Positions 11,370-56,432 of a stretch of DNA of 64,000 nt are shown one piece after another. Every line of letters begins with the position of its first letter. Position 1 is the first letter of the stretch. Location of the stretch: NCBI GenBank assembly GCA_043228905.1, contig JBHGNT010000016.1, positions 3,100,001 through 3,164,000 on the forward strand, read 5' to 3'. The stretch is from Azolla caroliniana (Eukaryota; Plantae; Polypodiophyta). The translations under genes and the position numbers were made by a program. Under the pieces are notes generated by a model, which saw only the letters and a program-made list of their open reading frames with translations, did not search any database and had not been told where the DNA came from.

Positions 11370-12007
11370 ACTATAGTTCCTTCCTCGTTTTTATTATTGT
11401 CTTGGTGGTATACAATCTATCTATAGAGGAATGAGGCAGCATCTATATTTTCTGATGGATTTCACACCATTCAATGACTATTTGCGCAAGACTCATTGGT
11501 TCTCGTAGCTTCATTACAACGAATAATGCTTTTTGCATCATAGGTAAGACTCGCATGGTTAAACACTAAGATCAAATCTTTGGTTTAACACTATGTTCTC
11601 CATAGGTTTAGTGTTCTGTATGAGGTATTCTGGGATTCAGTATTAACATAGTCTTATTTAAAAATATCTGTTTTTTATAATTTCAGATTCATGGTTAACA
11701 TCTCCTTATGTTATTCAAAATCAACGTTGGGTTTAGTCTTATCAATTTTCTTCATTTATAACATATTCACCTGACATTCACAGATCTAATCATTGGTTTC
11801 AAATTGGACTATTCAAGGAAAATTGCTGTTCATTGTTAGCGACATCCTTACAAAATATTCCTGATTCGAAGAATTTCAGCATGCGTCATTAATGTTTTCT
11901 GAAATCTGCCTACTTGGGAAAACACTATTCAGATCTGAGAGTTGCAAGATTATATTACAATCCAAAGAGGTAAACCCCAAGTGAAAGTTAATTTTTAAAG
12001 GAGCGTG

Positions 12008-13301
12008 ATGGCCGAGAAGTCCAATAACCTGAATACATGGCCAATATCCAACCTAGAACATAATAAAGTATATGATGTTGATCAAAACATGGGAACACAC
12101 CTTACTGGCTCGGGAACATTTTTTTCCTTGTTCATGCCTCTAGTGGAGAGATATCAAGCTAATAATAGTATTAATTCCATGAATGAATCTCTACCACCCA
12201 AATTTGAGAATTTTGATATGCAAACATCAAATGCATGTCATAAAGATTTTGTCGTATTTGATCATACTGACACCAAAAACACTGTCATACTTCATCCATC
12301 ATGGTTGAATAACTGTACATGTGAATCATCTCTTGGGCCAGAAAGCAATCTAATCGGGAAATGTTTTCTAAATGAGGTAAAGGATTTTAATCAGCAAGTT
12401 AAAGAAGCTATGCCAAGCTTTCATTTCTCATCAGCTTTACGACCAAATTTATCAAGGTTAAATACTGATGACATTGTGCAAGATAGTACAACTATGAGGA
12501 CCAATCTTGCATTCATGCTGAACAGAGGAAAATGTGATATTGGGCATTACCACAATGTTCAGACCAAGGATGAAAGTGAGATTAGTTTGTCATCAGGCAA
12601 TGGAATCCTAAATCAGTTTCATGAAGATACAGAAGAGATAGATGCACTTTTAAGCTCTGATGATGACCTCGGTAGCACTGGGCATTCACCAACTGATGCA
12701 TCTTCATACCGGTATAATGAGGGTGAAGTAAAACATGAAGGAGATAGTCTCATAGGTATAAAGAGGAATCTAGAAAACATGTCTTCAGAGGAAAATGATG
12801 ATGCCGATTCAAAGGAAACTTCTCGATCTCAGAATAAATTCCAGAACTGTTTAGACTTGCGGACTCAAGAAAAGACTTACTACAAAGAGATGTTGAAATC
12901 ATCCTTGCTCAACCAGGTTTGTATCTAAAAACTAACACTTGTTAATGCACTGTATCAATATGAAAAATGGAAATCATTATTTATAAAGAGGACATAAATT
13001 AATGTGAATTTTGTTATCCTTGCTCAACCAGGTTTGTATTGGAAAGAAAAGCTGTTCATCATCGAGTGAAAAAAGCTTAGGAACATTGGGAGGACTAATA
13101 ATGGATCCAAAAAAGAGAACCATGATAGAGTCTTGTGTAAATCAGCTGAGGAATGTTATTCCAGGTGGAAATGGGTTAGATACTGTAGAAGTGTTGACCC
13201 GGACAGTGCAGTATGTGATGTGTTTGGAGGGTAGACTGAGAGACCTAGAAAAACTCAAGGAAATCCAAATCTTACCCAAGGAAACAGCGTGGATGGGTTA
13301 A
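12008..13301 (+). CDS. SACL: SAC51-like (SACL, bHLH142-145 group) transcription factor, exons 12008-12916 and 13032-13301, about 392 aa
   Basis: Family motifs FVVFDHT, HEDTEEIDALLSSDDD..STGHSP and an atypical C-terminal bHLH (IESCVNQLRNVIPGG..DTVEVLTRTVQYVMCL). The two track ORFs join in frame via CAG|GT...CAG. The diagnostic uORF lies upstream. Confidence 0.92.
12901..13039 (+). repeat. Perfect 24-bp direct repeat spanning both splice sites of the SACL coding intron
   Basis: ATCCTTGCTCAACCAGGTTTGTAT at 12901-12924 and 13016-13039. The offset of 115 nt equals the intron length. Confidence 0.95.
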
Positions 13302-13595
13302 ATGAAATATCAAATATTATTGTGCCAAGAATTTAATCTTACCAAGGAAAAAGGGGATGCAGTGGATGAATTAATACACAAGTTAATTGAGGTGTGATGT
13401 GTGGCAATGCTCCACTTAAGATTAATGATGGATTTGCCCACTATTTCAATTACATAGCCGGGACAAATTATGTTTAGAGTTGTTATTATGATGATGACTT
13501 GAATTCTACCAACATGAGCCATTCTGTTGGTATGCCTTTTTAGTTATATTATAAGCTATTATGACTTGGGTGTGGTTCATTCATATTTCCTTTAT

Positions 13596-14170
13596 AACCA
13601 TATGTTTGTTCACTGTTTGAATGGCTTCTTATGTTTCTGATACATAGTTCTCTAATGAACTTTGATATAAGCGTTCATGCTGTATGTTATGGTAGAACTT
13701 ATGTTAAAACAATGGATGGTTTCTGTTAGAACCATATGTTTTTTTCACTGTTTCAATGGTTTCTTATGTTCATGCTGTCTGGTATGGTAGAACTTGTGGT
13801 AAAACAGGTGTTTCTGTGGCTAGCTTAAGCTTAAAATTTTATCACTTTCTGTTATTAAGCAGTATTTATTATATTGGGTATTTCTTTATTATATTTTTAC
13901 AGGCAGATGGCTTGATTTGCACATCAATAATTTCAATTGTCACATATGCAAATATGTACGGTGCTAAAATTTAATCAGAGTTTTGTTATTAGGTGTGCAT
14001 GTTAATAGTTCCAATTGCTTATCATATACTTATAGATGCTGTGCATGACTTATACATTAATTTCAATTGTCATGTACCTAAATATGTAGGATGCTAAAAG
14101 TTTATTGGTGTTATGTTATTATTAGGTAAATATTGGGTGTACATATTAATAGTTCCAATTGTTATTTCTC
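13596..14170. repeat. Two diverged local tandem duplications in the SACL 3' region
   Basis: aaccatatgttt..ttcactgttt.aatgg.ttcttatgtt...tatggtagaactt near 13597 and 13729. aatttcaattgtca...aaatatgta.g.tgctaaaa...ttaatagttccaattg near 13929 and 14059. Confidence 0.75.
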
Positions 14171-15014
14171 TACACAAATACGATGCTGAGTTTTTGTAGT
14201 TCAGATAATATTTACTTGCACACCTTTCTTCTGCATAAGGAGTTTGCAATTACAGTACATATGTGCACAGCCTCAAGTGCTTTTCTGGTTCTGGCTATAT
14301 ATCGATCTTCAACAAGCCTAAAACCAAATATGAATGTTAAACGGTATCTCTGGTTGTCATAATCATGCCATGCATCAGAGCTGCAATAAACACACAAATA
14401 AAGAAGATGAGATATTAAACTCTACGAATAAAACTCTCTTCCTGGTTCTCGACATCTCCAGTTTTGAGAGATGCTTTCAATATCACATAGAAGCTTACAT
14501 ATACATCCATATGTTGCAAGGGAACTACATAAATGGGCTAAAAGACATTAACCATTAGTTCACTGACTTGAAACATTGGTGAAAAAAAGAATCAATTATC
14601 ATAAATAGATTACTGCAGACTTGATTGAAGGACAAAAGTAGAACAAGGCTGCTCAAAGAGAATAACCATAATGTCATGATCAAGGCTACATTGTAGGGTA
14701 GAGTTAGCATAGATAGTAGACGATCAGATATCAGATTGAATACAAAAAAAACAGAGCATCAAATGGTCACGAGTACTGGTATTTCAGAGAAAAAATACTT
14801 CAGAGAGACATTAAATCAGGCAAAGAATAAACAACCTAATACATTAGCACCATTATAATTTACTTGAGAACATCATATTATTCATATAATAATCGTAATT
14901 CACCAAAAGAGTTCTTTGTGGAAAATGGTCTATATTTGTACATAGCATCATATAGCATAAAAAGAAGTAAAAACCCTGCTGTCAATAATGGAGGCACCAT
15001 CTATCTTTTCATCC

Positions 15015-23028: not shown

Positions 23029-24411
23029 AGCTGTCTGTGTCTGCGCTTTCTTAATTGAATGAGAGCATGAAGAAGCAAGACGAAAAGAAAATGGGAGTTT
23101 AACGAAAATGCCCCTCGACCGTTTTCCTTAATTTCCAGAATACCCCTGTATCTTTCATACATAATTCCCAAATACCCCTCGTTTTTTCCCTAACCGGCTA
23201 AAAACCCCACCCCTTAAACACATGTAGTAAATGTCCATGATGCTAGTTAGGTCCACATGTGTAAATTGCATGACTATGTATATATATCTAGACTCCCTTG
23301 CATGTAAGCAATTCAAATAAGAACATGTAGTCAATGTCAATTTTCAAGCTCAAGGATCACTGCTAGTAGAAGTTCACACAACCCCTTCCCCCGGACGCCT
23401 CTTGCACACCAAATGAAAGCTCAAAAGTGTTAGGTCTTCAAACATATTCGAAGAGGGAATACCCATACAATTCCATTGTATATAGATATATAAGTTTTTA
23501 ATGTCCAAGGGAGGCCATTTGTGATCTATGAAACAAGGCATAGCCAAGGGCAAGGATTGAAGATTGATTCTCCCAAATTTTGCGAATTTGATGCTACCAT
23601 GTAAATCAACAACTAGCCTATTAACAACCAAAGAGAGTGGTTAATTTGAAGGGAGAAGAAAACTAGTCGAGCCGACCACACCTATCAAGGGAGCAACTAA
23701 AAAACCCTTGCTCTCACTCTTGGACACATTGGGGCAGGGCCTTTGCACGAGCTCACAAATGTACATGTCGGGCGACTCTACGCTTGGAAAGCATACATAT
23801 ATGTACATGCATGCTAAAAAAAAACCCCAACCCAAGAACCTACAAAAAAAAATGGAGGTCAAATAGAGCGCAGGGGTATATTGGGAGATTAAAGGAAAAA
23901 TTGGAAGGGGGGTAATTTATATATACTTAATGTATTATTATTATATGTACACATAAAGAAAGAAAGAAAGAAAGAAAGAAAGAACGATTTATTAACGTCT
24001 TCTAAGACCAAAATTGGCCCAAAATAAATATATCTTATAAAGTTATATGTACTAAATATAAAAGGCCTGTAAATACTGTAAATAAATGGAATACATAGAT
24101 AACCGACCAAGTAAATACATAAATACATAAAATATATAAAATAAATACATAGATACATAAAATAAATACATAAATACATAAATACATAAATACATAAATA
24201 CATAAATACATAAATACATAAATACATAAATACATAAATACATAAATACATAAATACATAATATATATATAATATATAAAATACATAAATACAATAGTAT
24301 TATTAGAAGGCATTTTAAACAAGAAAGGAGCACAGCCGTCTCTCGTTTCCCTGAGAAAGAAAGAGAGAGAGAGAGAGAGAGCGGCAGCGACAGAAGGGAG
24401 CTTCGACAGCG
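23029..24411. promoter_or_regulatory. Divergent intergenic region (about 1.4 kb ATG to ATG) between SEC20 and SPY
   Basis: Head-to-head start codons, a GGCCCA site-II motif near 24016 and a GA-repeat just before the SPY ATG. Confidence 0.6.
24112..24292. repeat. (TAAATACA)n octamer tandem array
   Basis: More than 10 consecutive perfect units with degenerate flanking units. It explains the spurious MYLCIYVF ORFs. Confidence 0.95.
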
Positions 24412-27400
24412 ATGGCGTGGCCTGAATCGCGTCTACTTCAACCTCAGAGCTCCCACGATAGAGACAACGACACAGTAGGAATTGTTTCGTCTGCTTCAAC
24501 CGAGAAGGAAAGAGATAGAGAGGCAGCAGCCGATGAAGAATCAGAAGGACAGAATCAGAGGCCCAAGCGTCACCATCTTCCCCTTCTGCACTCTTCTTAT
24601 TCTTCTTCTGCTAAAACCACAACTACGACAATGACACCGTTTTCTTCCCCTGGACCTCCTCATCGGGATATTTATTCGTCTTCTTCAGCTCGTTTCTCTG
24701 CCAAAGAAGAATCAAAAGAAGGAGGAGGAAAAAAAGATATAGAAGAAGAAATAGGAGACGATTCCTCTGAAGAGGATGATGACGATGACGATGACGATGA
24801 GGAGCTTTCATATGCAGAGATTCTTCGATCTAGGAACAAGTTCTCTGATGCACTCTCCATCTACGAAAGGATACTTGATAAGGAGCCCGGAAGTGTTGAA
24901 GCTCATTTAGGAAGAGGAATTTGTCTTCAAGTTCAAGGATTTTCTCAGCGGGCATTCGAAAGCTTTGCTCATGCCCTCACCTTGGATCCGAAGAATGCTT
25001 GTGCTCTCACTCATTGTGGTATATTGTACCGAGAAGAAGGTCATCTAATTGAAGCTGCAGAGGTATTGCGTATCTTACTTTTAAATTACTTATTCATGTT
25101 TGAATCTCTGCTTAATGATGTTTTCGACTATGCATTTTGTCATATTACAGTCTTTGTGTTCATACCCATGTTTAAATCTATGCCTAATGTTTCTGCCAGT
25201 ATGCATGTCATACTACCTTGTCTTTCTTCTTTTGTTTCATTTTCACTAGTTCATGCCAACTTGTCTTTCTCTGGCTTGAATCTCTGCAAAATGTTTTTCT
25301 TTATCCACTTCCAGATGTTATTAGAAATAATTACTTTCTCCTTGGGTAATGGATCAGCTACCATATTATTTCTTGTTGAATCATCAAGTATTTGATATTA
25401 AACTAAATTTAATCACAACTTCTGAGCTGACATGAAATTAGGCATCTGTTGATGATCTTCTAGATGGAATATGGATAAAAAAGCATTTGACAGTAAACTC
25501 AAATTAGTGATGAAATAACCTAATTGCTTGTTTTGGATCTCAGGAATTATTGTTGATACTAAATCAATTTTAATGGTAAATCATCTAAGATTTTTTTGCT
25601 AATTCTGAAAGTGGTGAATAATCACTTTGGCATGATGTATTTTTTGGTGCTCTAGGAAAAAACCATTTTTTTTGGAATATGTAGAATTTTACAGAAAATT
25701 CAAAAGCAGATTTCCCGGTTTGAATAAATTAAATTTAGTGAAGAAATTATTTAATCTGCATTTTCAAGGAGAAATTGTGTGTATTTGTCTTCAGGGATTG
25801 CTGTATTGGTTTTCGTGGTGAGCAACCTGTTTTGAATCATGCATTTTGTGGCGATCTTGTTGCTATATGAATCAGTTAGCATGTTTTAGGGCTAAAAAAT
25901 TGATTGGTGACATTGTAATGCTAAACTGGCTCTTTGGAAAATGGAACTAGCCAGTTGTTTGTAGCAAAATAATATTATCAACAAGATGATCTTATTGCAC
26001 TTTCGCGTAGACCTTTAACGCATCCATTGTCTGAGGAATTTTTCTTGTTGTTAAGCAAATTAAATGAGAGTTTATCTAAGTTCATTTCATTTAGGGGGCT
26101 GATATTAGTGGTGGAAAATTTTAACTACAGTTAATAGAGAACATTTCGTGCATTCTTCATCCTAAGATGGTGGTTGATGATTTTAATGTTGAACGATAAA
26201 AGTGCACGTCATGGAAAACTTTGCAGCATAATAGAATTTATTTTACTGATTGAAGTGGATATCAAGGATATGAAATTTTCAATATGGTTGTCTATATTGA
26301 ACATTTGATCTTCAAGGCTTTGCCAATATTGTGGAAAATCCTCATCTTTATCTTTCTTCTGGGTTCAGGCATGTCAGAAGGCTTTATTTGCTGATTCAAG
26401 CTACAAGCCTGCATCTGAGAACCTTGCAATGGCTTTGACAGATCTTGGGACAAATTTGAAGCTGTCAGGAAATGTTCAGCAAGGGCTTCAGAAATATTGT
26501 GATGCCTTAAAAGCAGATAGTACTTATGCAGTAAGTAATTGTCTTTCAATACAACAGATTTGGTGGATAGCACCGTAAATTGATATAATTTTTTGGACAC
26601 CTGTTACAATCTTGATCACCAGATGATGGTTGCTCTACCCTAGCAATGGCTAGCTGGAGAGTGGTGAGGCCTAGCACATGCTCTATATCTTTTGACTCTG
26701 ACCTTTCACCAACCCCCCATAATCCCATCATAACGATGCATGTATGACATAGCACATATGTACAATGTACTAGCATATTGCACACCTTGTAGCTGTTCAT
26801 TCCTGCGGTTTCAATGTGTTGTTTCCTAACTCTGCCCCTCTGTGATTGGAAGGCATTAGCAAGAAAGCTTGAAGCTTCACATATTCTTGTTATGCTGAGC
26901 AACAAAAATAAATTACTAGAATTTAAACCTCATAAATCTTATATTTAAGATAAAAGAGCCCATTTATTATGAAATTGGTGATTACTTACAATTTTGAAGT
27001 ATACATGATGTGCATTTGGAGATTACAGATATCACAAGTTTGAATCAGAGCCAAAGTGCTAGTTAGTGATTTGGCTTTTTAGGCAAATAAGAGATTTTCG
27101 TCAAATTGTACAGTTGTGGTAATTCATTTATGTAAATTACAGCCAGCTTACTACAACCTGGGAGTTGTTTATTCTGAGACGATGCAGTTTGATCTAGCTC
27201 TTCAGTGCTATGAGAAAGCAGCCCACCACAGGCCTATGTATGCTGAAGCATTTTGCAACATGGGGGTTATTTACAAAAATCGAGGAGATTTGGATTCAGC
27301 AATTGCTTGTTATGACAGGTATTTCTTTGTGAACTGAGACTTGACAGGGATTGGAAAATCATCTTGATTATACGATAATTCAGGGGGCTGATATCAATGC

Positions 27401-30400
27401 AGGTGTTTGGCTGTGTCTCCAAACTTTGAGATTGCAAAAAATAATATGGCTATAGCACTTACCGACTTAGGTACAAAGGTATGTTTTCCAATTACATCAT
27501 CTCTTACATGGTGTGAAAATTTCATGATTTAACTAGTGAGAAAATATTAACTGAACTGTCAGTTCTGTTCTTCTACCAACACTCTTGTATTTTCTCATTT
27601 AGTTTCCAGTTTCTTTTGCTGTTCGTATTATGCAGGTAAAACTTGAAGGTGATATCCATCAAGGGGTAGCATATTACAAGAAAGCTCTTTTGTACAATTG
27701 GCATTATGCAGATGCATTGTACAACTTGGGTGTTGCATATGGAGAAATGCTCAAATTTGACATGGTAGGATTAAGTTTAAGATTAAGATGAAGATGAAAA
27801 TCATCTAATTTTAAGGTTGAGAAATTGGTATGATTAATTGTATAGACCTTGACTGCAGGCTGTTATAATGTACGAGCTTGCGCTGCATTTTAATCCTCAT
27901 TGTGCTGAGGCATGCAACAACCTTGGAGTTATTTACAAGGACAGAGATAACCTTGATAGAGCTGTTGAGTGTTACCAGGTCTGTCAAGCAGAGGCCATCT
28001 CTCATCTGTGGTTTGAAAATGTTTGAATATTTTGTAATTTGAAGTTCATATTGACTAGGAATAAGTACAATTCAGTTACATAAATAAAACTCTCATGTAA
28101 GCAGTGATGTGGTTAAGAATCAAATGACGCAATACTGATCATGTTGCGTGTGTAATGTCAAATATTTCCACATTTTTGGGACTAGTTCGATATAAATAAA
28201 AATGTTATGAGCAGAGGTAAAACTATCTTTAGAATTACCTCTGTCATGTTCTCTTTTCATTATATAGATCAAGATATTTCTTTTTTGAAGAATCTGTCTC
28301 ACTGAAAGACATTGAAAATATTGATGTCACATATACATTCTATTTGGAATTGCATGAGCGGAAAGCTTCCAAAGAGGACTCAAGTATACTATTATTATTT
28401 AGGTGCCATAATATCACGTGTGCAACATTTAATTCGTGTGTTATGATGTCCTTTTAAAAAGCAGCCCACTCTCATTGACTGATGAAGCACTACTTTGGGA
28501 ATGTCATCTAGCCCGCCCCACAATTAGATACCTGTGCAAGAAGAGCACGCTTCCGAGGAGGGGGTAGATATGTTATTATTTCGGTGACATAAATACCATG
28601 GGTGCAGCTTAGAAATCATATGTTGGGATTTCTCTTTAAAAAGCAATAAACTCTCATTCACCTATAAAGCAATATTTGGAAATCGCATCTAGCTAATCAT
28701 ACAAAATATTAAAGAGATACCTCAATACAGCAGACACGAATATTCTATGATGCATATTCTTGTAATTCAGTGAGGATTTGATACTTTCATTGCTTACCTC
28801 ACCTGTCAGGATGTAAAATTTCTGTACTTAGACAGGCCAATAAATGCAATTTAACTTTAATATGCTTTCTTGTTGTATCACAGATGGCACTTTCCATCAA
28901 GCCAAAATTTTCCCAGTCACTTAATAATCTTGGAGTAGTCTATACTGTCCAGGTTTGTTGAAAATATTGGGGCTTTGGATTGTAGCATGGCATCTATAAT
29001 ACATGTATTTGAATTCCTATGCAGGGTAAGATGGATGCTGCTGCGAGCATGATCCAGAAAGCTATAATGGCAAATCCCTCTTATTCTGAGGCATACAATA
29101 ATTTAGGTAAAATCTTTATTGCCTAAAGTATTCCTGGTTTGGTTTGAAAGGCAACATCTACAAAATGGTTTCTATTTGTTTACTTTTTCAATTTTGCAGG
29201 TGTTTTGCACAGAGATGCTGGCAACATTTCTCTTGCTATAGAAGCATATGACCGCTGTCTACAAATTGACCCCAATTCACGCAATGCTGGTCAGGTATGA
29301 TACTGGTCATTATTTGAAGGAGTTAAAGTGGCACAATTGATTTTTCATCATGAATATTGTTGCAGAATCGACTACTAGCGATGAACTATATTTATGAGGG
29401 TGATGATGACCGACTTTTTAATGCCCACAGGTTGCCACTGAATCTTTGTTTAGTTTCCTGCAATTCTTAGGTTTCCTTGAGTATCCTTGCGTTGAGTCAC
29501 AACAGTTTCGTCAATTTTAGATCTTGCCTTTTGGATGTTGTTGTGGTTCCAGAACTTATGATGTTTCATGACATGTTCAGAGATGACCAATTTTTGTGGT
29601 TTCAACCTGATGAATTGTACTAATAATATTTATCTTTGTTGTATTTTACAGAGACTGGGGCAAACTGTTTAGCAAGCTTTACCCAAAATTCACCACTTGG
29701 GACCACACAAAAGATCCTGATCGTGCTCTAGTGATTGGCTATATTTCACCAGACTACTTCACACATTCTGTCTCCTACTTTGTGGAGGCTCCACTTGCGC
29801 ATCATAATTACTCAAACTACAGAGTAGTCGTCTATTCTGCAGTTGTGAAGGTGATTTTGATATGTGCTTCAGCGTATTCAAATGTTTCAATGTAGTCATA
29901 TTGATTCATTTCCTGATGATGCTAGGGTGATGCTAAAACACTTCGTTTAAAGGATATGGTCATCAAGAAAGGTGGTACTTGGAGAGACATCTATGGTATA
30001 GATGAAAAGGTTGTAGCCAGTCTTGTGAGGGAAGATAAAGTTGACATCTTGGTTGAGCTGACTGGACACACAGCCAACAATAAGCTTGGTGTATTAGCTT
30101 CCCATCCTGCACCTGTTCAGGTAGCTCTCCACTAATCTACTTGCAATTATTCTTGTGGGCAATGCAGAGAGCAGGGTTTGTTTTCAAGTGTTAAAGAGGT
30201 TCTTTTCAGGCCACATGGATCGGTTATCCGAATACAACTGGACTTCAAACAATCGACTACCGGTTCACAGATGCTTTGGTGGACCCTCCATCAACAAGAC
30301 AAAGGTATATAATACTGTTAAGGCTTGAAATTTGGACGCTTAACATTATCTTAGTCAGTTGAAACTCAATTGCAGACATGTTGAAGAGCTGGTGAGGCTG

Positions 30401-31745
30401 CCGGGCTGTTTTCTCTGCTATACACCATCTCCAGAAGCAGGAGCAGTAGTTGAATCACCAGCTATTTCCAATGGCTTTGTTACGTTTGGGAGTTTCAACA
30501 ACCTTGCTAAGGTTTAAACCTCTGATACTTCCTGTTTTGTTCAAGTAGGCATTTGGATTTTATTGAATTCCATGTCATGTACAGATAACACCTCGAGTAG
30601 TTTGTGTTTGGGCAAAGATACTTTGCGCTATGCCGACCTCAAGATTGATAGTAAAATGTAAACCCTTCGGTTGTGAAAGCATAAGAGAGTCATTTCTTGC
30701 TAAACTGGAGCAGCATGGAGTAGAACCGAGCCGTGTTGATCTTTTACCATTGATACTTTTGAATCATGACCACATGCAGGCATACTCTCTGATGGATATC
30801 AGGTTTGTGTGCAACGTACAAGAGTCAGTCATCTTTATTTTATAAGCTAGCTCTGAGTAGCCATGCATACATTTACTGATACACATACATGCAGATATTG
30901 TTATTACATATAATAAGTATCATAAAAAAGCAAAATATATTAGTACTACCACAATAGAAGGCAATATGGAATTCAAAGTTTTATAATTCAATGTATTTTT
31001 TTGTAATCGAGATATGAAGGTTATTGCTATTTTGTCATGGCTTTTTTTTTGCATGCGGTTTCTTAATGAAAATATTGTTTTATACTTCAAGCAGTTTGGA
31101 TACTTTCCCATATGCTGGCACCACTACAACATGCGAATCTCTATATATGGGAGTACCATGTGTTACCATGGCAGGGTTAGTTCATGCTAATAATGTTGGG
31201 GTGACACTTCTACATCAAGTTGGTAATACTCTTGTGTTTTATCAATTGCTTTCTTGTGACACCACTTTGTCAACCTGGGGTCTGAAGATAACTGGTATAT
31301 TTCTTAATCATAAATAATTGCAGGACTTGAGAAACTAATTGCAAAAACAGAAGATGAATATGTGAGCAAAGTGCTTCACCTTGCATCAGACATCACCACA
31401 CTGGCCAAGATAAGAATGACTCTAAGAGAACGTATGTCTAAGTCCCGTCTTTGTGATGGCAGCACCTCCGTTCGAGATCTTGAGGCAGTATACAGAAGGC
31501 TATGGCATAGATATTGCAATGGTGATATGCCTTCTCTGTCAAGTCACAGAAGATTAAGCGAGAAACTTGGCCTAAGGAATTCAATTGAAGAGCCTAAAAA
31601 TGACATGAACTCAAAGGAGCACCATTTCAACTCCATGAGTGTTCCCAATGGTCTAGATTGTACAGTAGCACTTATGTCATCGGAAGGTAGAAATGATGTT
31701 TCTACAGGGAAGCCATCGAAACAAAATCCTAGCCAACCTAGTTAG
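24412..31745 (+). CDS. SPY: SPINDLY, TPR-containing protein O-fucosyltransferase (GT41), about 17 coding exons
   Basis: TPR exons ([46 protein letters not shown]) and catalytic motifs [41 protein letters not shown] and [21 protein letters not shown]. All introns traced are GT-AG. Confidence 0.97.
28364..28695. repeat. Diverged tandem duplication (about 185-bp period) in a SPY intron
   Basis: gcttcc.a.gagg...ttattattt.ggtg.cataaata.ca.g.gtgca...tttaaaaagca...actctcatt.ac..at.aagca...tttgg.aat..catctagc occurs twice. Confidence 0.7.
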
Positions 31746-54054: not shown

Positions 54055-56432
54055 ATTTGAGAGATACTGATCTATATAAGTTCTTTTCAAAGAAACCCTA
54101 ATTTCCTAGTGCAATCCGTATGATAGATCTATGTGAAATAAAAAAATGTAGGAGAAATGCATGTTTGCATCTCTGACAGGATGAAAACAGAAACAAAGGA
54201 GCCATGCCATCAAATTTAGTAGTGGTCTAAATACATTGAAGTTCGTCCTTAGATGAACATATGTAAGAAAAGAAGAAGAAGCCATGGATTCTAACCAAAT
54301 GCATGTTTGAGTTATCGTATATATAAATTCTCTAGAAATAAAGGTTGATCTTCTTATACTATTGCTTTGTTCGTGTTTCAAAAGCAAGTATAGTTTTGTT
54401 GGGCTATATTCCTTTTCTATAAAGAATCCCTAATTTCCGAGGAAATCCTAATGATTTCTGAATTTCATTTACAGGGAAATCTCTCTAATTTGTTGGCTTG
54501 ATCTGTTTCATTGCATCTGCAGTTTGCCATTGTCCAAGTACCTCTCTCATTGTTCTCCACCACCATCTATGCCAACAGGCAGCAACGTCTGCAGAACAAG
54601 CTTCTTTTGGCTGTTTACTGTACTCTTCTTGTGTATGAGGTGAATTCTGGGAGAGGTCTCTCTACAATCAACAGGATTCTTCAAGCGCTTTTAAAACCTC
54701 CCTCTCATCTCCCTCTGTTCTTTTGCTTTTTTGCTTTCATTTTACAGTTCCTTGTAGCAGTGCTTATGATCAAGATGGGTCGTTATCTTAAATGCCCTAG
54801 ATTGAGATCACATCAGATGGCTCGCCCTTCTTCGTCACAGCCGGTAGGACTTATCTTTCTTCTATGATCTCTTCCTGTATAAAAGGGTTCATCCACATAG
54901 AAGGATGCTATGGTGCATGGATATACTTCATTTCCTTTGTATGCATACGAACTATTGTTTTATACCAGGATATGGTGATTTGTATGTATATATGTACTGT
55001 TTTGTATAGACATACAGAATGTAATTCAAATAAAAGGATGTGCATTGTTGCTTTTCTGTATATACATGCAGAGCATCATCTTTATACAAAGTTACAAAGG
55101 TGATCATTTATATGAACATCATCCAAGTTCTATGCTTATGTTTTGTCTATGATGTATGCTATGGTATGTAATATTAGCTACTTTGATTTCTATGCATCCA
55201 AAGTGTGTACAAGGTTATTGTGTGTGCATTGTTGCTTTGGTTGGTTGTAAGTTGTCTTAATGATCTACTCTTTTATCTATTTGGGGTCATATGGTTTCTC
55301 ATTGTGTCATCCATTATGATAAGACCACTTCTATGATGAGTATCATGTGAAGGTCTCCATTCGTTTGTGTTATAACTTATAAGCATATACATATCAAGGA
55401 TCAGATTTTAACAACTGTGCTGACATTGTCCTAACATTGCATTGGTTTTAACTTTCTTTTTCCCTCTGTGTATGAATGAATGTAGATCTCTCAACCTTAT
55501 ATTGCCTTCCATATGTTTGCATTGTTCACACAACCAGTAGGGCAAGGCTTTCCATATCTGAACAACCCAGAGAGTGAGGTACATCACTCTAAATCGTGTG
55601 AAGTCTCATCATTTTTTTGTATTCGACAAGAATGTCTGTCATAAATGTTAAATCAATGAATGAAATGGTTTGATGGAAGGTATCTCAAGCAGAAGGATTT
55701 GTTACTGTCCAACAACCTGACGGGAAAAAGGTTCCATTCTTATTTTCAGCTTGTGTAGTTAAAAGATATCGACAATTGATGACTTTTCATTGGCTTCATT
55801 CTCATGAACTTGATTTTGCTTGCTGCTCAAAATAGGTTATGCTTGGGAAGGTGTTGGAATCGAAAGTTGAACCTCTTCAAATAACGGAAACTGACCATAC
55901 CAATAGTTACATTAAACCATTACAACCGACTATAAATGGACATATTATTGATGTTCTGGATGATGTTTTGGAGCAACAGGACAGTCCTATTGAATCTGAC
56001 CCTGTCAGATTGACATCAAGAAATATCATGGAACAATTGATAATTCCTGTCCAAGGGCAACAAGAAACCTCTCATGAAACCGATAATGGATTGGATCCGG
56101 TTGTGCCAACATCAAGTTATGTCACTTCAGATATTGAGCAGTCCATGGGTTTGACAAGTGAACCATCACTTGCTCCTATGAATGTCATGATTCCTGTCCA
56201 AGGGCAACAAGAAACCTCTCATGAAACCGAGAATGGATTTGATCCGGTTGTGCCAACATCAAGTTATGTCACGTCAGATATTGAACAGTCCATGAGTCTG
56301 ACAAGTGAACCATCACTTGCTCCTATGAATGGCCTAACAGTCAGGTTGGAAACCAACAGTGACATTGAACCTCCCAACACGATTGAATTTGTTGGGTTGT
56401 GCCAGGGGTCTGAATCTACAATCTTGCAATAA
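53112..56432 (+). CDS. Uncharacterised multi-pass membrane protein, about 359 aa; exons 53112-53165, 53807-53878, 54523-54639, 54748-54843, 55486-55578, 55680-55730, 55836-56432
   Basis: Strong start context (gcgATGG). Seven exons joined by GT-AG introns, all phase 0, give a continuous ORF MENWHLFTAAFVLSLVDL/SVLGAFLWYQF.../FAIVQVPLSLF...LLVYE/FLVAVLMIKMG.../.../VSQAEGFVTVQQPDGKK/VMLGKV... The exon 6 acceptor is weak. No family recognised. Confidence 0.7.
53231..53323. repeat. (ACT)n trinucleotide microsatellite in intron 1 of the orphan gene
   Basis: About 31 perfect units. Confidence 0.95.
56043..56330 (+). repeat. In-frame 147-bp (49-aa) tandem duplication in the last exon
   Basis: IPVQGQQETSHET(D/E)NG(L/F)DPVVPTSSYVTSDIEQSM(G/S)LTSEPSLAPMN occurs twice. 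Units start at 56043 and 56190. Confidence 0.95.

Follow-up and report, generated by a model that had tools for sequence, protein, structure and literature searches.

According to the Rogers model, a new intron can be born by tandem duplication of an exon segment that bears AGGT (PMC3443670), and such a duplication in ATP2A, as its report describes it, has been re-enacted in cells with 6-16% splicing (PMC3265369). In the accessible part of the literature, intron gains with a source that can still be read appear to be rare and purely exonic AGGT-duplication cases few, and the plant precedent on record, from potato, is described as having borrowed the signals of an existing intron (PMC4974935). 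The SAC51/SACL genes (bHLH142-145) are described as thermospermine-regulated bHLH genes (PMC13582744, PMC2075485). Like the members of this family in those accounts, the gene studied here has a long leader, a spliced uORF and a putative C-terminal bHLH domain, and it differs from them in a main ORF that is interrupted by a gained intron and in a basic region that has drifted in this copy (KRTMIESCVN, against KRTKIKTNIN in the orthologue P0020). It lies in a stretch of 64,000 nucleotides of Azolla caroliniana DNA, hereafter the window, to which all coordinates refer. At the level of titles and abstracts, the literature on Azolla intron gain and on fern SAC51 introns held no description of this intron. 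The intron is absent from the paralogue and, by its presence in relatives, old. We consider it somewhat better than an even chance that it was born when some 115-130 nt of the CAG|GT-bearing exon of this gene became duplicated in tandem, an origin drawn from comparison of the sequences.

Gene structure and family identity

The gene lies on the plus strand with all the features given here. Its uORF is encoded by two exons (10940-11032 and 11331-11369) which are joined in X9, X6, X23 and X20 to give a peptide of 43 aa, presumably the conserved peptide uORF of homology group 15. The 298-nt GT..AG intron between them (11033-11330) is skipped in these four runs, and a second GT..AG intron of 240 nt in the 5' leader (11544-11783) is skipped in X6, with the equivalent joint in X9 and X20; both served as control introns. 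The 3' exon of the uORF reads AEYFRQLLKPVT and a stop, for which the paralogue has AEYFRQLLKPIT and a stop, and it is kept in the paralogue as well as in X22 and X23. The main ORF comprises exon 1 (12008-12916), 303 codons that form the SAC51-like N-terminal part, and exon 2 (13032-13301), 89 codons and a stop, which carries the helix-loop-helix domain; when spliced, it is a SAC51-like bHLH frame of 392 aa spanning 12008-13301.

The closest named relatives of the window protein are fern proteins (Adiantum), and judged by similarity the gene is not an angiosperm one, fern-type relatives being the nearest. Exon 2 of the window gene matches Pfam HLH and bHLH_LHW, both below the cut-off, while orthologue P0020, paralogue P0006 and P0005 match bHLH_SAC51, likewise below the Pfam cut-off. 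A family profile search recovers the Amborella bHLH143. The bHLH basic region (13101-13145) has drifted in the window lineage relative to both P0020 and the paralogue.

Terminal repeat and splicing of the intron

The sequence ATCCTTGCTCAACCAGGTTTGTAT occurs at 12901-12924 and again at 13016-13039, the copies being 100% identical, 115 nt apart and separated by 91 nt of 23% G+C (12925-13015), which agrees with the perfect 24-bp duplication of a CAG|GT site that an earlier note on this DNA had described. The first copy is made of 16 exonic nt and the 8-nt donor end of the intron (CAG|GTTTGTAT), and the second of the 16-nt acceptor end and 8 exonic nt; the match stops sharply at both ends. A terminal repeat of 24 nt is far beyond chance: it measures 16+8 nt in this intron, against 3+1 and 2+0 nt in the two other introns of the gene. 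Other exact AGGT-bearing repeats of at least 14 nt in 264 kb of the genome are mostly tandem or dispersed, as judged collectively by spacing and length. Tandem Repeats Finder returned no rows over 12000-14300 at score 30.

The donor GT stands at 12917 and the acceptor AG ends at 13031, thus delimiting a phase-0 GT..AG intron of 115 nt (12917-13031) with a branch-like TTAAT at 12999. Its removal gives the 392-aa SAC51-like bHLH frame, as the earlier note had foreseen, and the unspliced main frame runs after 306 aa into a stop at 12926-12928, before the bHLH-bearing exon 2, again in line with that note. The alternative pairs 12907/13051 and 12917/13046 (GT/GC..AG) also hold a long frame and are used by no contig.

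As X3, an independent DNA run from another study, spans 10900-13450 in a single gap-free contig that differs at 17 letters, and a contig of X2 matches 12912-13186 with 0 differing letters, the repeat is not the assembly duplication that the earlier note had named as a danger to its reading. X9 and X6 have one contig each that joins 12900 to 13016, consistent with GT..AG, where 24 letters fit either side, and thereby skips exactly 115 nt. No run is recorded as RNA, and the RNA nature of X9, X6, X23 and X20 was judged from the skipped control introns; since X9 and X6 both lack the leader intron and the 298-nt intron of the uORF as well, they are taken as spliced RNA. The junction contig of X6 has 0 differences over 213 nt, and 6/6 of the substitutions listed for X6 are common to X3. 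A 6-nt insertion of X6 (after 12188) is also present in P0001, an ORF that ends at VCI like the unspliced frame, and the allele type of X6 therefore has the intron in its DNA. X9 is a more divergent allele, known from the spliced contig alone, with 12/31, 9/25 and 11/31 listed variants common to the related loci L004, L005 and L006. The 115-nt element is a genuine spliceosomal intron, precisely spliced, as had been claimed. That X9 and X6 show no intron-retaining contig, and X20 no contig or joint over 12878-12963, is an absence of cover and carries no evidence on retention, by which, in the earlier note, a bHLH-less isoform could arise.

The organism labels of the runs do not follow the sequence, X9 having the window's label and a divergent allele and X2 holding two haplotypes. 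The runs labelled C span 0.53 to 0.00 in share (among X2, X9, X5, X10, X22 and X23).

Intron gain and the duplicated block

A genome search for family members gave 3 matches from 12 scored candidates, namely the paralogue and the two exons of the window gene. The paralogue is intronless, its 365 codons forming one open frame in which the site occurs once, as ILEQ|VCMG, with GTTTGTAT unaltered, and the spliced window frame is collinear with it at EQ|VCMG. As both ends of the intron copy ancestral exon, which loss cannot produce, and the DNA of the paralogue has no intron, these alignments indicate a gain in the window gene and not a loss in the paralogue, and the gain at a duplicated CAG|GT site proposed in the earlier note is upheld.

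The multi-exon neighbour at 24355-31742, a TPR-repeat gene that looks like SPINDLY, has its own paralogue beside the C18 SAC51-like copy, marking a duplicated block. The SAC51-like pair has a Ks of 0.95 and the neighbour pair one of about 0.75, the latter from rough exon bounds. These block values (0.75-0.95) are close to the Ks peak of about 0.8 that is given for the Azolla genome duplication (PMC6786969).

Age of the intron

The earlier note had read the intron as a recent birth that close relatives should lack, and had named its presence in distant relatives as evidence against this; the related sequences contradict it on both counts. Three of the four related loci fetched (L004-L006, 93% nucleotide identity, Ks 0.11, 0.13 and 0.14) carry the same 115-nt insert. 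The fourth, L007/P0003, was excluded as a likely assembly chimera, its front matching the window gene and its rear the paralogue, with the switch at the conserved HEDTEEID motif. At 55% protein identity, P0004 ends in SSLLNQVYI and a stop, at the same codon as the unspliced window frame. On the tree, P0004 is reached over a path of 0.79, P0002 over one of 0.13 and the paralogue over one of 1.83, which places P0004 six times further away than P0002.

The loose ends of X22 and X23 read FQTGVKLQDC, as in P0004, and LVQLEKFQI, as in P0020, and by these letters the two runs come from the species of P0004 or one very near. From 12823 to 13138, X23 has 202 letters, against 314 in the window and 199 in its spliced form, the P0004 protein being one codon longer in this part; X23 also skips the uORF intron. 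In four alignable pieces X23 has 98/542 differences, L004 27/541 and the paralogue 137/491. As the distant species has both a form stopping after VYI and a form that reads through, we infer from the protein end and the contig letter count that it carries an intron at the same codon. The X22 contig still has the uORF intron and extends for 832 letters beyond 12823 with no match to the bHLH piece, and P0004 and P0020 are on different contigs; the distant species may have a much longer intron, or the X22 contig or transcript may end inside it. The DNA of the P0004 contig and a full-length spliced protein of its species were looked for, and neither was found. In a profile search of 1.84 billion representatives, one further protein, P0039, ends at the intron codon among the 5 examined of the 150 matches listed.

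Over 11514-12204 the length in the distant species is 493 letters, whether in X22, where the contig has the uORF intron, or in X23, where it is spliced. The 240-nt leader intron at 11544-11783 may be absent there, through a second gain or a loss, or X22 may be partly spliced.

Taken over these comparisons, the intron appears to be old, its gain probably falling between the block duplication (Ks 0.75-0.95) and the split from the distant species. The split of the two Azolla sections lies at about 50 million years, and the age of the intron would be tens of millions of years. For the duplication itself, a date of 80 million years is given (PMC11314209).

A duplicated exon segment as the proposed source

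Under the Rogers model, both splice sites would have been made in one step when about 115-130 nt of exon were duplicated in tandem, with copy 1 supplying its GT as donor and copy 2 its AG as acceptor. As the GT of copy 1 and the AG of copy 2 are the sites in use, splicing removes the length of one copy and leaves the protein unchanged, as in the gene today. Of the four features that define the Rogers or ATP2A1 type, the locus shows two, the same exonic AG|GT at both ends of the intron and an unchanged spliced coding sequence; on absence of the intron from paralogue and outgroups the comparison covered the paralogue, which has none, and on homology of the interior to the flanking exon it gave the weak frame-specific signal described below. 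The interior would have drifted afterwards to A+T-rich intron sequence, while the 8 nt past the donor, the 16 nt before the acceptor and their coding twins would have changed slowly under splice-signal and codon constraint, leaving what is now seen as a 24-bp repeat. It is a speculation that, as long as the new intron was spliced inefficiently, its loss of function may have been cushioned by the intact second gene that the block duplication had left.

On this reading the interior would descend from the first part of exon 2 and have decayed since. At the DNA level no significant likeness to either exon was obtained: for exon 2, scores were reached by 588-1720/2000 shuffles in local and by 72-676/1000 in anchored alignment, and against the paralogue by 283-402/1000. 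At the protein level, the interior in the frame of copy 1 reads IKRT-stop-I at 12983-13000, a weak match, where the orthologues have IKRTKI or IKRTMI, and this motif falls 4 codons short of a collinear position. When three orthologues of exon 2 made up the profile, the score of this frame was reached by 5, 9 and 18/2000 shuffles (window, L004 and L005, respectively), by 12, 11 and 49/2000 when the paralogue was included, and by 89, 46 and 286/2000 with a profile of 11 fern sequences, where the signal is weaker. The other two frames were never notable (561-1337/2000). Among the controls, 2/458 AT-rich genomic segments and 0/54 exon-1 profile tiles reached the profile score of the interior, and the pairwise protein tests gave 17-69/1000, against P0020 only. 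The whole signal is one 6-codon motif that had been spotted by eye before testing, and it makes us lean, short of proof, towards a decayed copy of the exon 2 start.

The matching exon stretch has 37% G+C, against 23% in the interior. Selection favours A+U-rich sequence in plant introns, and the low G+C of the interior is as expected on this account. In the 264 kb of genome examined, tandem arrays with units of 96-226 nt occur frequently, decayed ones just downstream of the gene among them, and the mutation needed for an origin by duplication is therefore a common one here.

Several tandem arrays were recorded in the window in their own right. Decayed repeats with spacings of 95-144 nt occupy 13586-14161, just downstream of the gene; two tandem copies of about 116 nt each lie around TC microsatellites at 3654-3860; and two 147-nt copies, 95% alike, lie at 56043-56331 in frame within an ORF of 198 codons (55836-56430, plus strand), with AGGT listed on the minus strand only.

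Alternative explanations

An old gain could also have come about by repair of a staggered double-strand break, in which about 91 nt of unrelated DNA was inserted and the 24 nt around CAG|GT were duplicated, the source being now unrecognisable; we regard this as possible, though on the unlikely side. The sharp ends of the repeat and the lack of significant DNA likeness of the interior to either exon are what such an insertion would leave, and the mechanism is one described for Daphnia neointrons, in which the terminal repeats are nevertheless given as 4-12 bp, against 24 here (PMC4202315). No source was found in the genome, exact matches of nearby sequence to the interior being at most 11 nt, which is at chance level, and the likeness of the interior to exon 2 in one frame alone speaks against unrelated DNA. 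A recent insertion or an introner-type element, the reading of the earlier note, we hold to be very unlikely. It has in its favour the perfect repeats of the window gene, and against it the presence of the intron at Ks 0.11-0.14 in related loci and, as judged from a protein end and a contig letter count, in a species at 55% protein identity. The foreign filler which that reading supposes also finds no match: the search for a second copy of the interior in the genome, which skips very common words, gave 1 match from 1 candidate, namely itself, and the ends of the interior have no terminal inverted repeats, nor does an inverted repeat run across it. That the element is a disrupting insertion, a mark of a pseudogene or an assembly duplication is hardly credible; the stop of the unspliced frame at 12928 and the bHLH scores below the Pfam cut-offs would fit a broken gene, but the intron is spanned by an independent DNA contig and skipped by transcript-like contigs, Ka/Ks against L004-L006 is about 0.4-0.5 and exon 2 is open.

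The lasting identity of the two copies is accounted for only partly by the preferred duplication reading. In a rough neutral model, 5-7 mismatches between the copies are expected at Ks 0.4, the probability of none being 0.001-0.007, and 0 were observed; perfect identity therefore needs constraint, luck of ascertainment, the locus having been chosen for its perfect repeat, or later conversion. Within the intron the repeat reaches to +8 and -16. Splice signals, the footprints of U1 and U2AF, end at about these positions. It is improbable, in our view, that in an old intron of either origin gene conversion, for which spliced cDNA may have been the template, made the copies alike again, or that dual use as donor and acceptor kept them so. 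Besides the missing mismatches, 47/48 repeat positions are unchanged in L004-L006, against 7-9/91 interior positions changed, and dual-specific AGGT sites are described in tandem-repeat genes (PMC10809524); yet 1/48 against about 8% is not significant by itself, and no other joint at these sites appeared in 8 runs, the contigs of which drop rare forms. Moreover, the sole repeat change in L004-L006, at 13034, is confined to the exonic part of copy 2, copy 1 being without it, and P0039, which stands for another allele or another species, has an in-frame loss of 9 nt in the exonic part of copy 1 (KSS-QVCI) with the donor kept, both of which read, in these alignments, as signs of ordinary decay. 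Equally doubtful is the narrower version, a Rogers case in late decay in which some active process has preserved the identity of the CAG|GT copies over tens of millions of years, be it conversion from spliced RNA or the use of each site as donor and acceptor, giving bHLH-less or bHLH-only forms. The change at 13034 (L004:3160) is synonymous, and exon 2 then starts as CAG|GTATGT, a donor-like site stronger than the real donor.

Comparison with described intron gains

In the introners and transposon-derived introns of the published account, AGGT is likewise duplicated on both sides and splicing is precise (PMC3443670). The window intron differs in having no second copy and no terminal inverted repeats, and its repeat is far longer than the usual target-site duplication. 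Introners occur in many similar genomic copies, with terminal inverted repeats and a short target-site duplication. The neointrons of Daphnia, as they are described, are alike in the direct repeats of exon ends at the intron termini and in an interior of unknown source (PMC4202315, PMC3443670); their repeats measure 4-12 bp and the introns are polymorphic and about 10^5 years old (PMC4202315), whereas the window intron has a repeat of 24 bp and is common to several species. Perfect terminal repeats do not date an intron, those here having outlived a split at 55% protein identity.

The potato RdRp intron is a plant intron gained via internal tandem duplication, as we propose for the window intron, but its duplication is reported to have crossed an existing intron-exon boundary, from which it inherited its signals, and to be recent (PMC4974935), whereas the two sites of the window intron apparently came from an AGGT segment that was wholly exonic, which is what the classic model supposes. 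The likeness to ATP2A1, so far as its description goes, lies in an intron gained precisely at an AG|GT of the exon that follows a pyrimidine-rich stretch, in an unchanged protein and an old age, and in the presence of the intron in one paralogue of a genome duplication and its absence from the other. The origin of that vertebrate intron is argued from exon sequence and was re-enacted in cells, whereas the plant intron of the window is known from sequence alone, its ends still matching the exons over 16+8 nt and its interior apparently keeping a faint trace of exon. With an intronless paralogue, several intron-bearing species and spliced transcripts combined at one locus, the duplication model becomes testable here.
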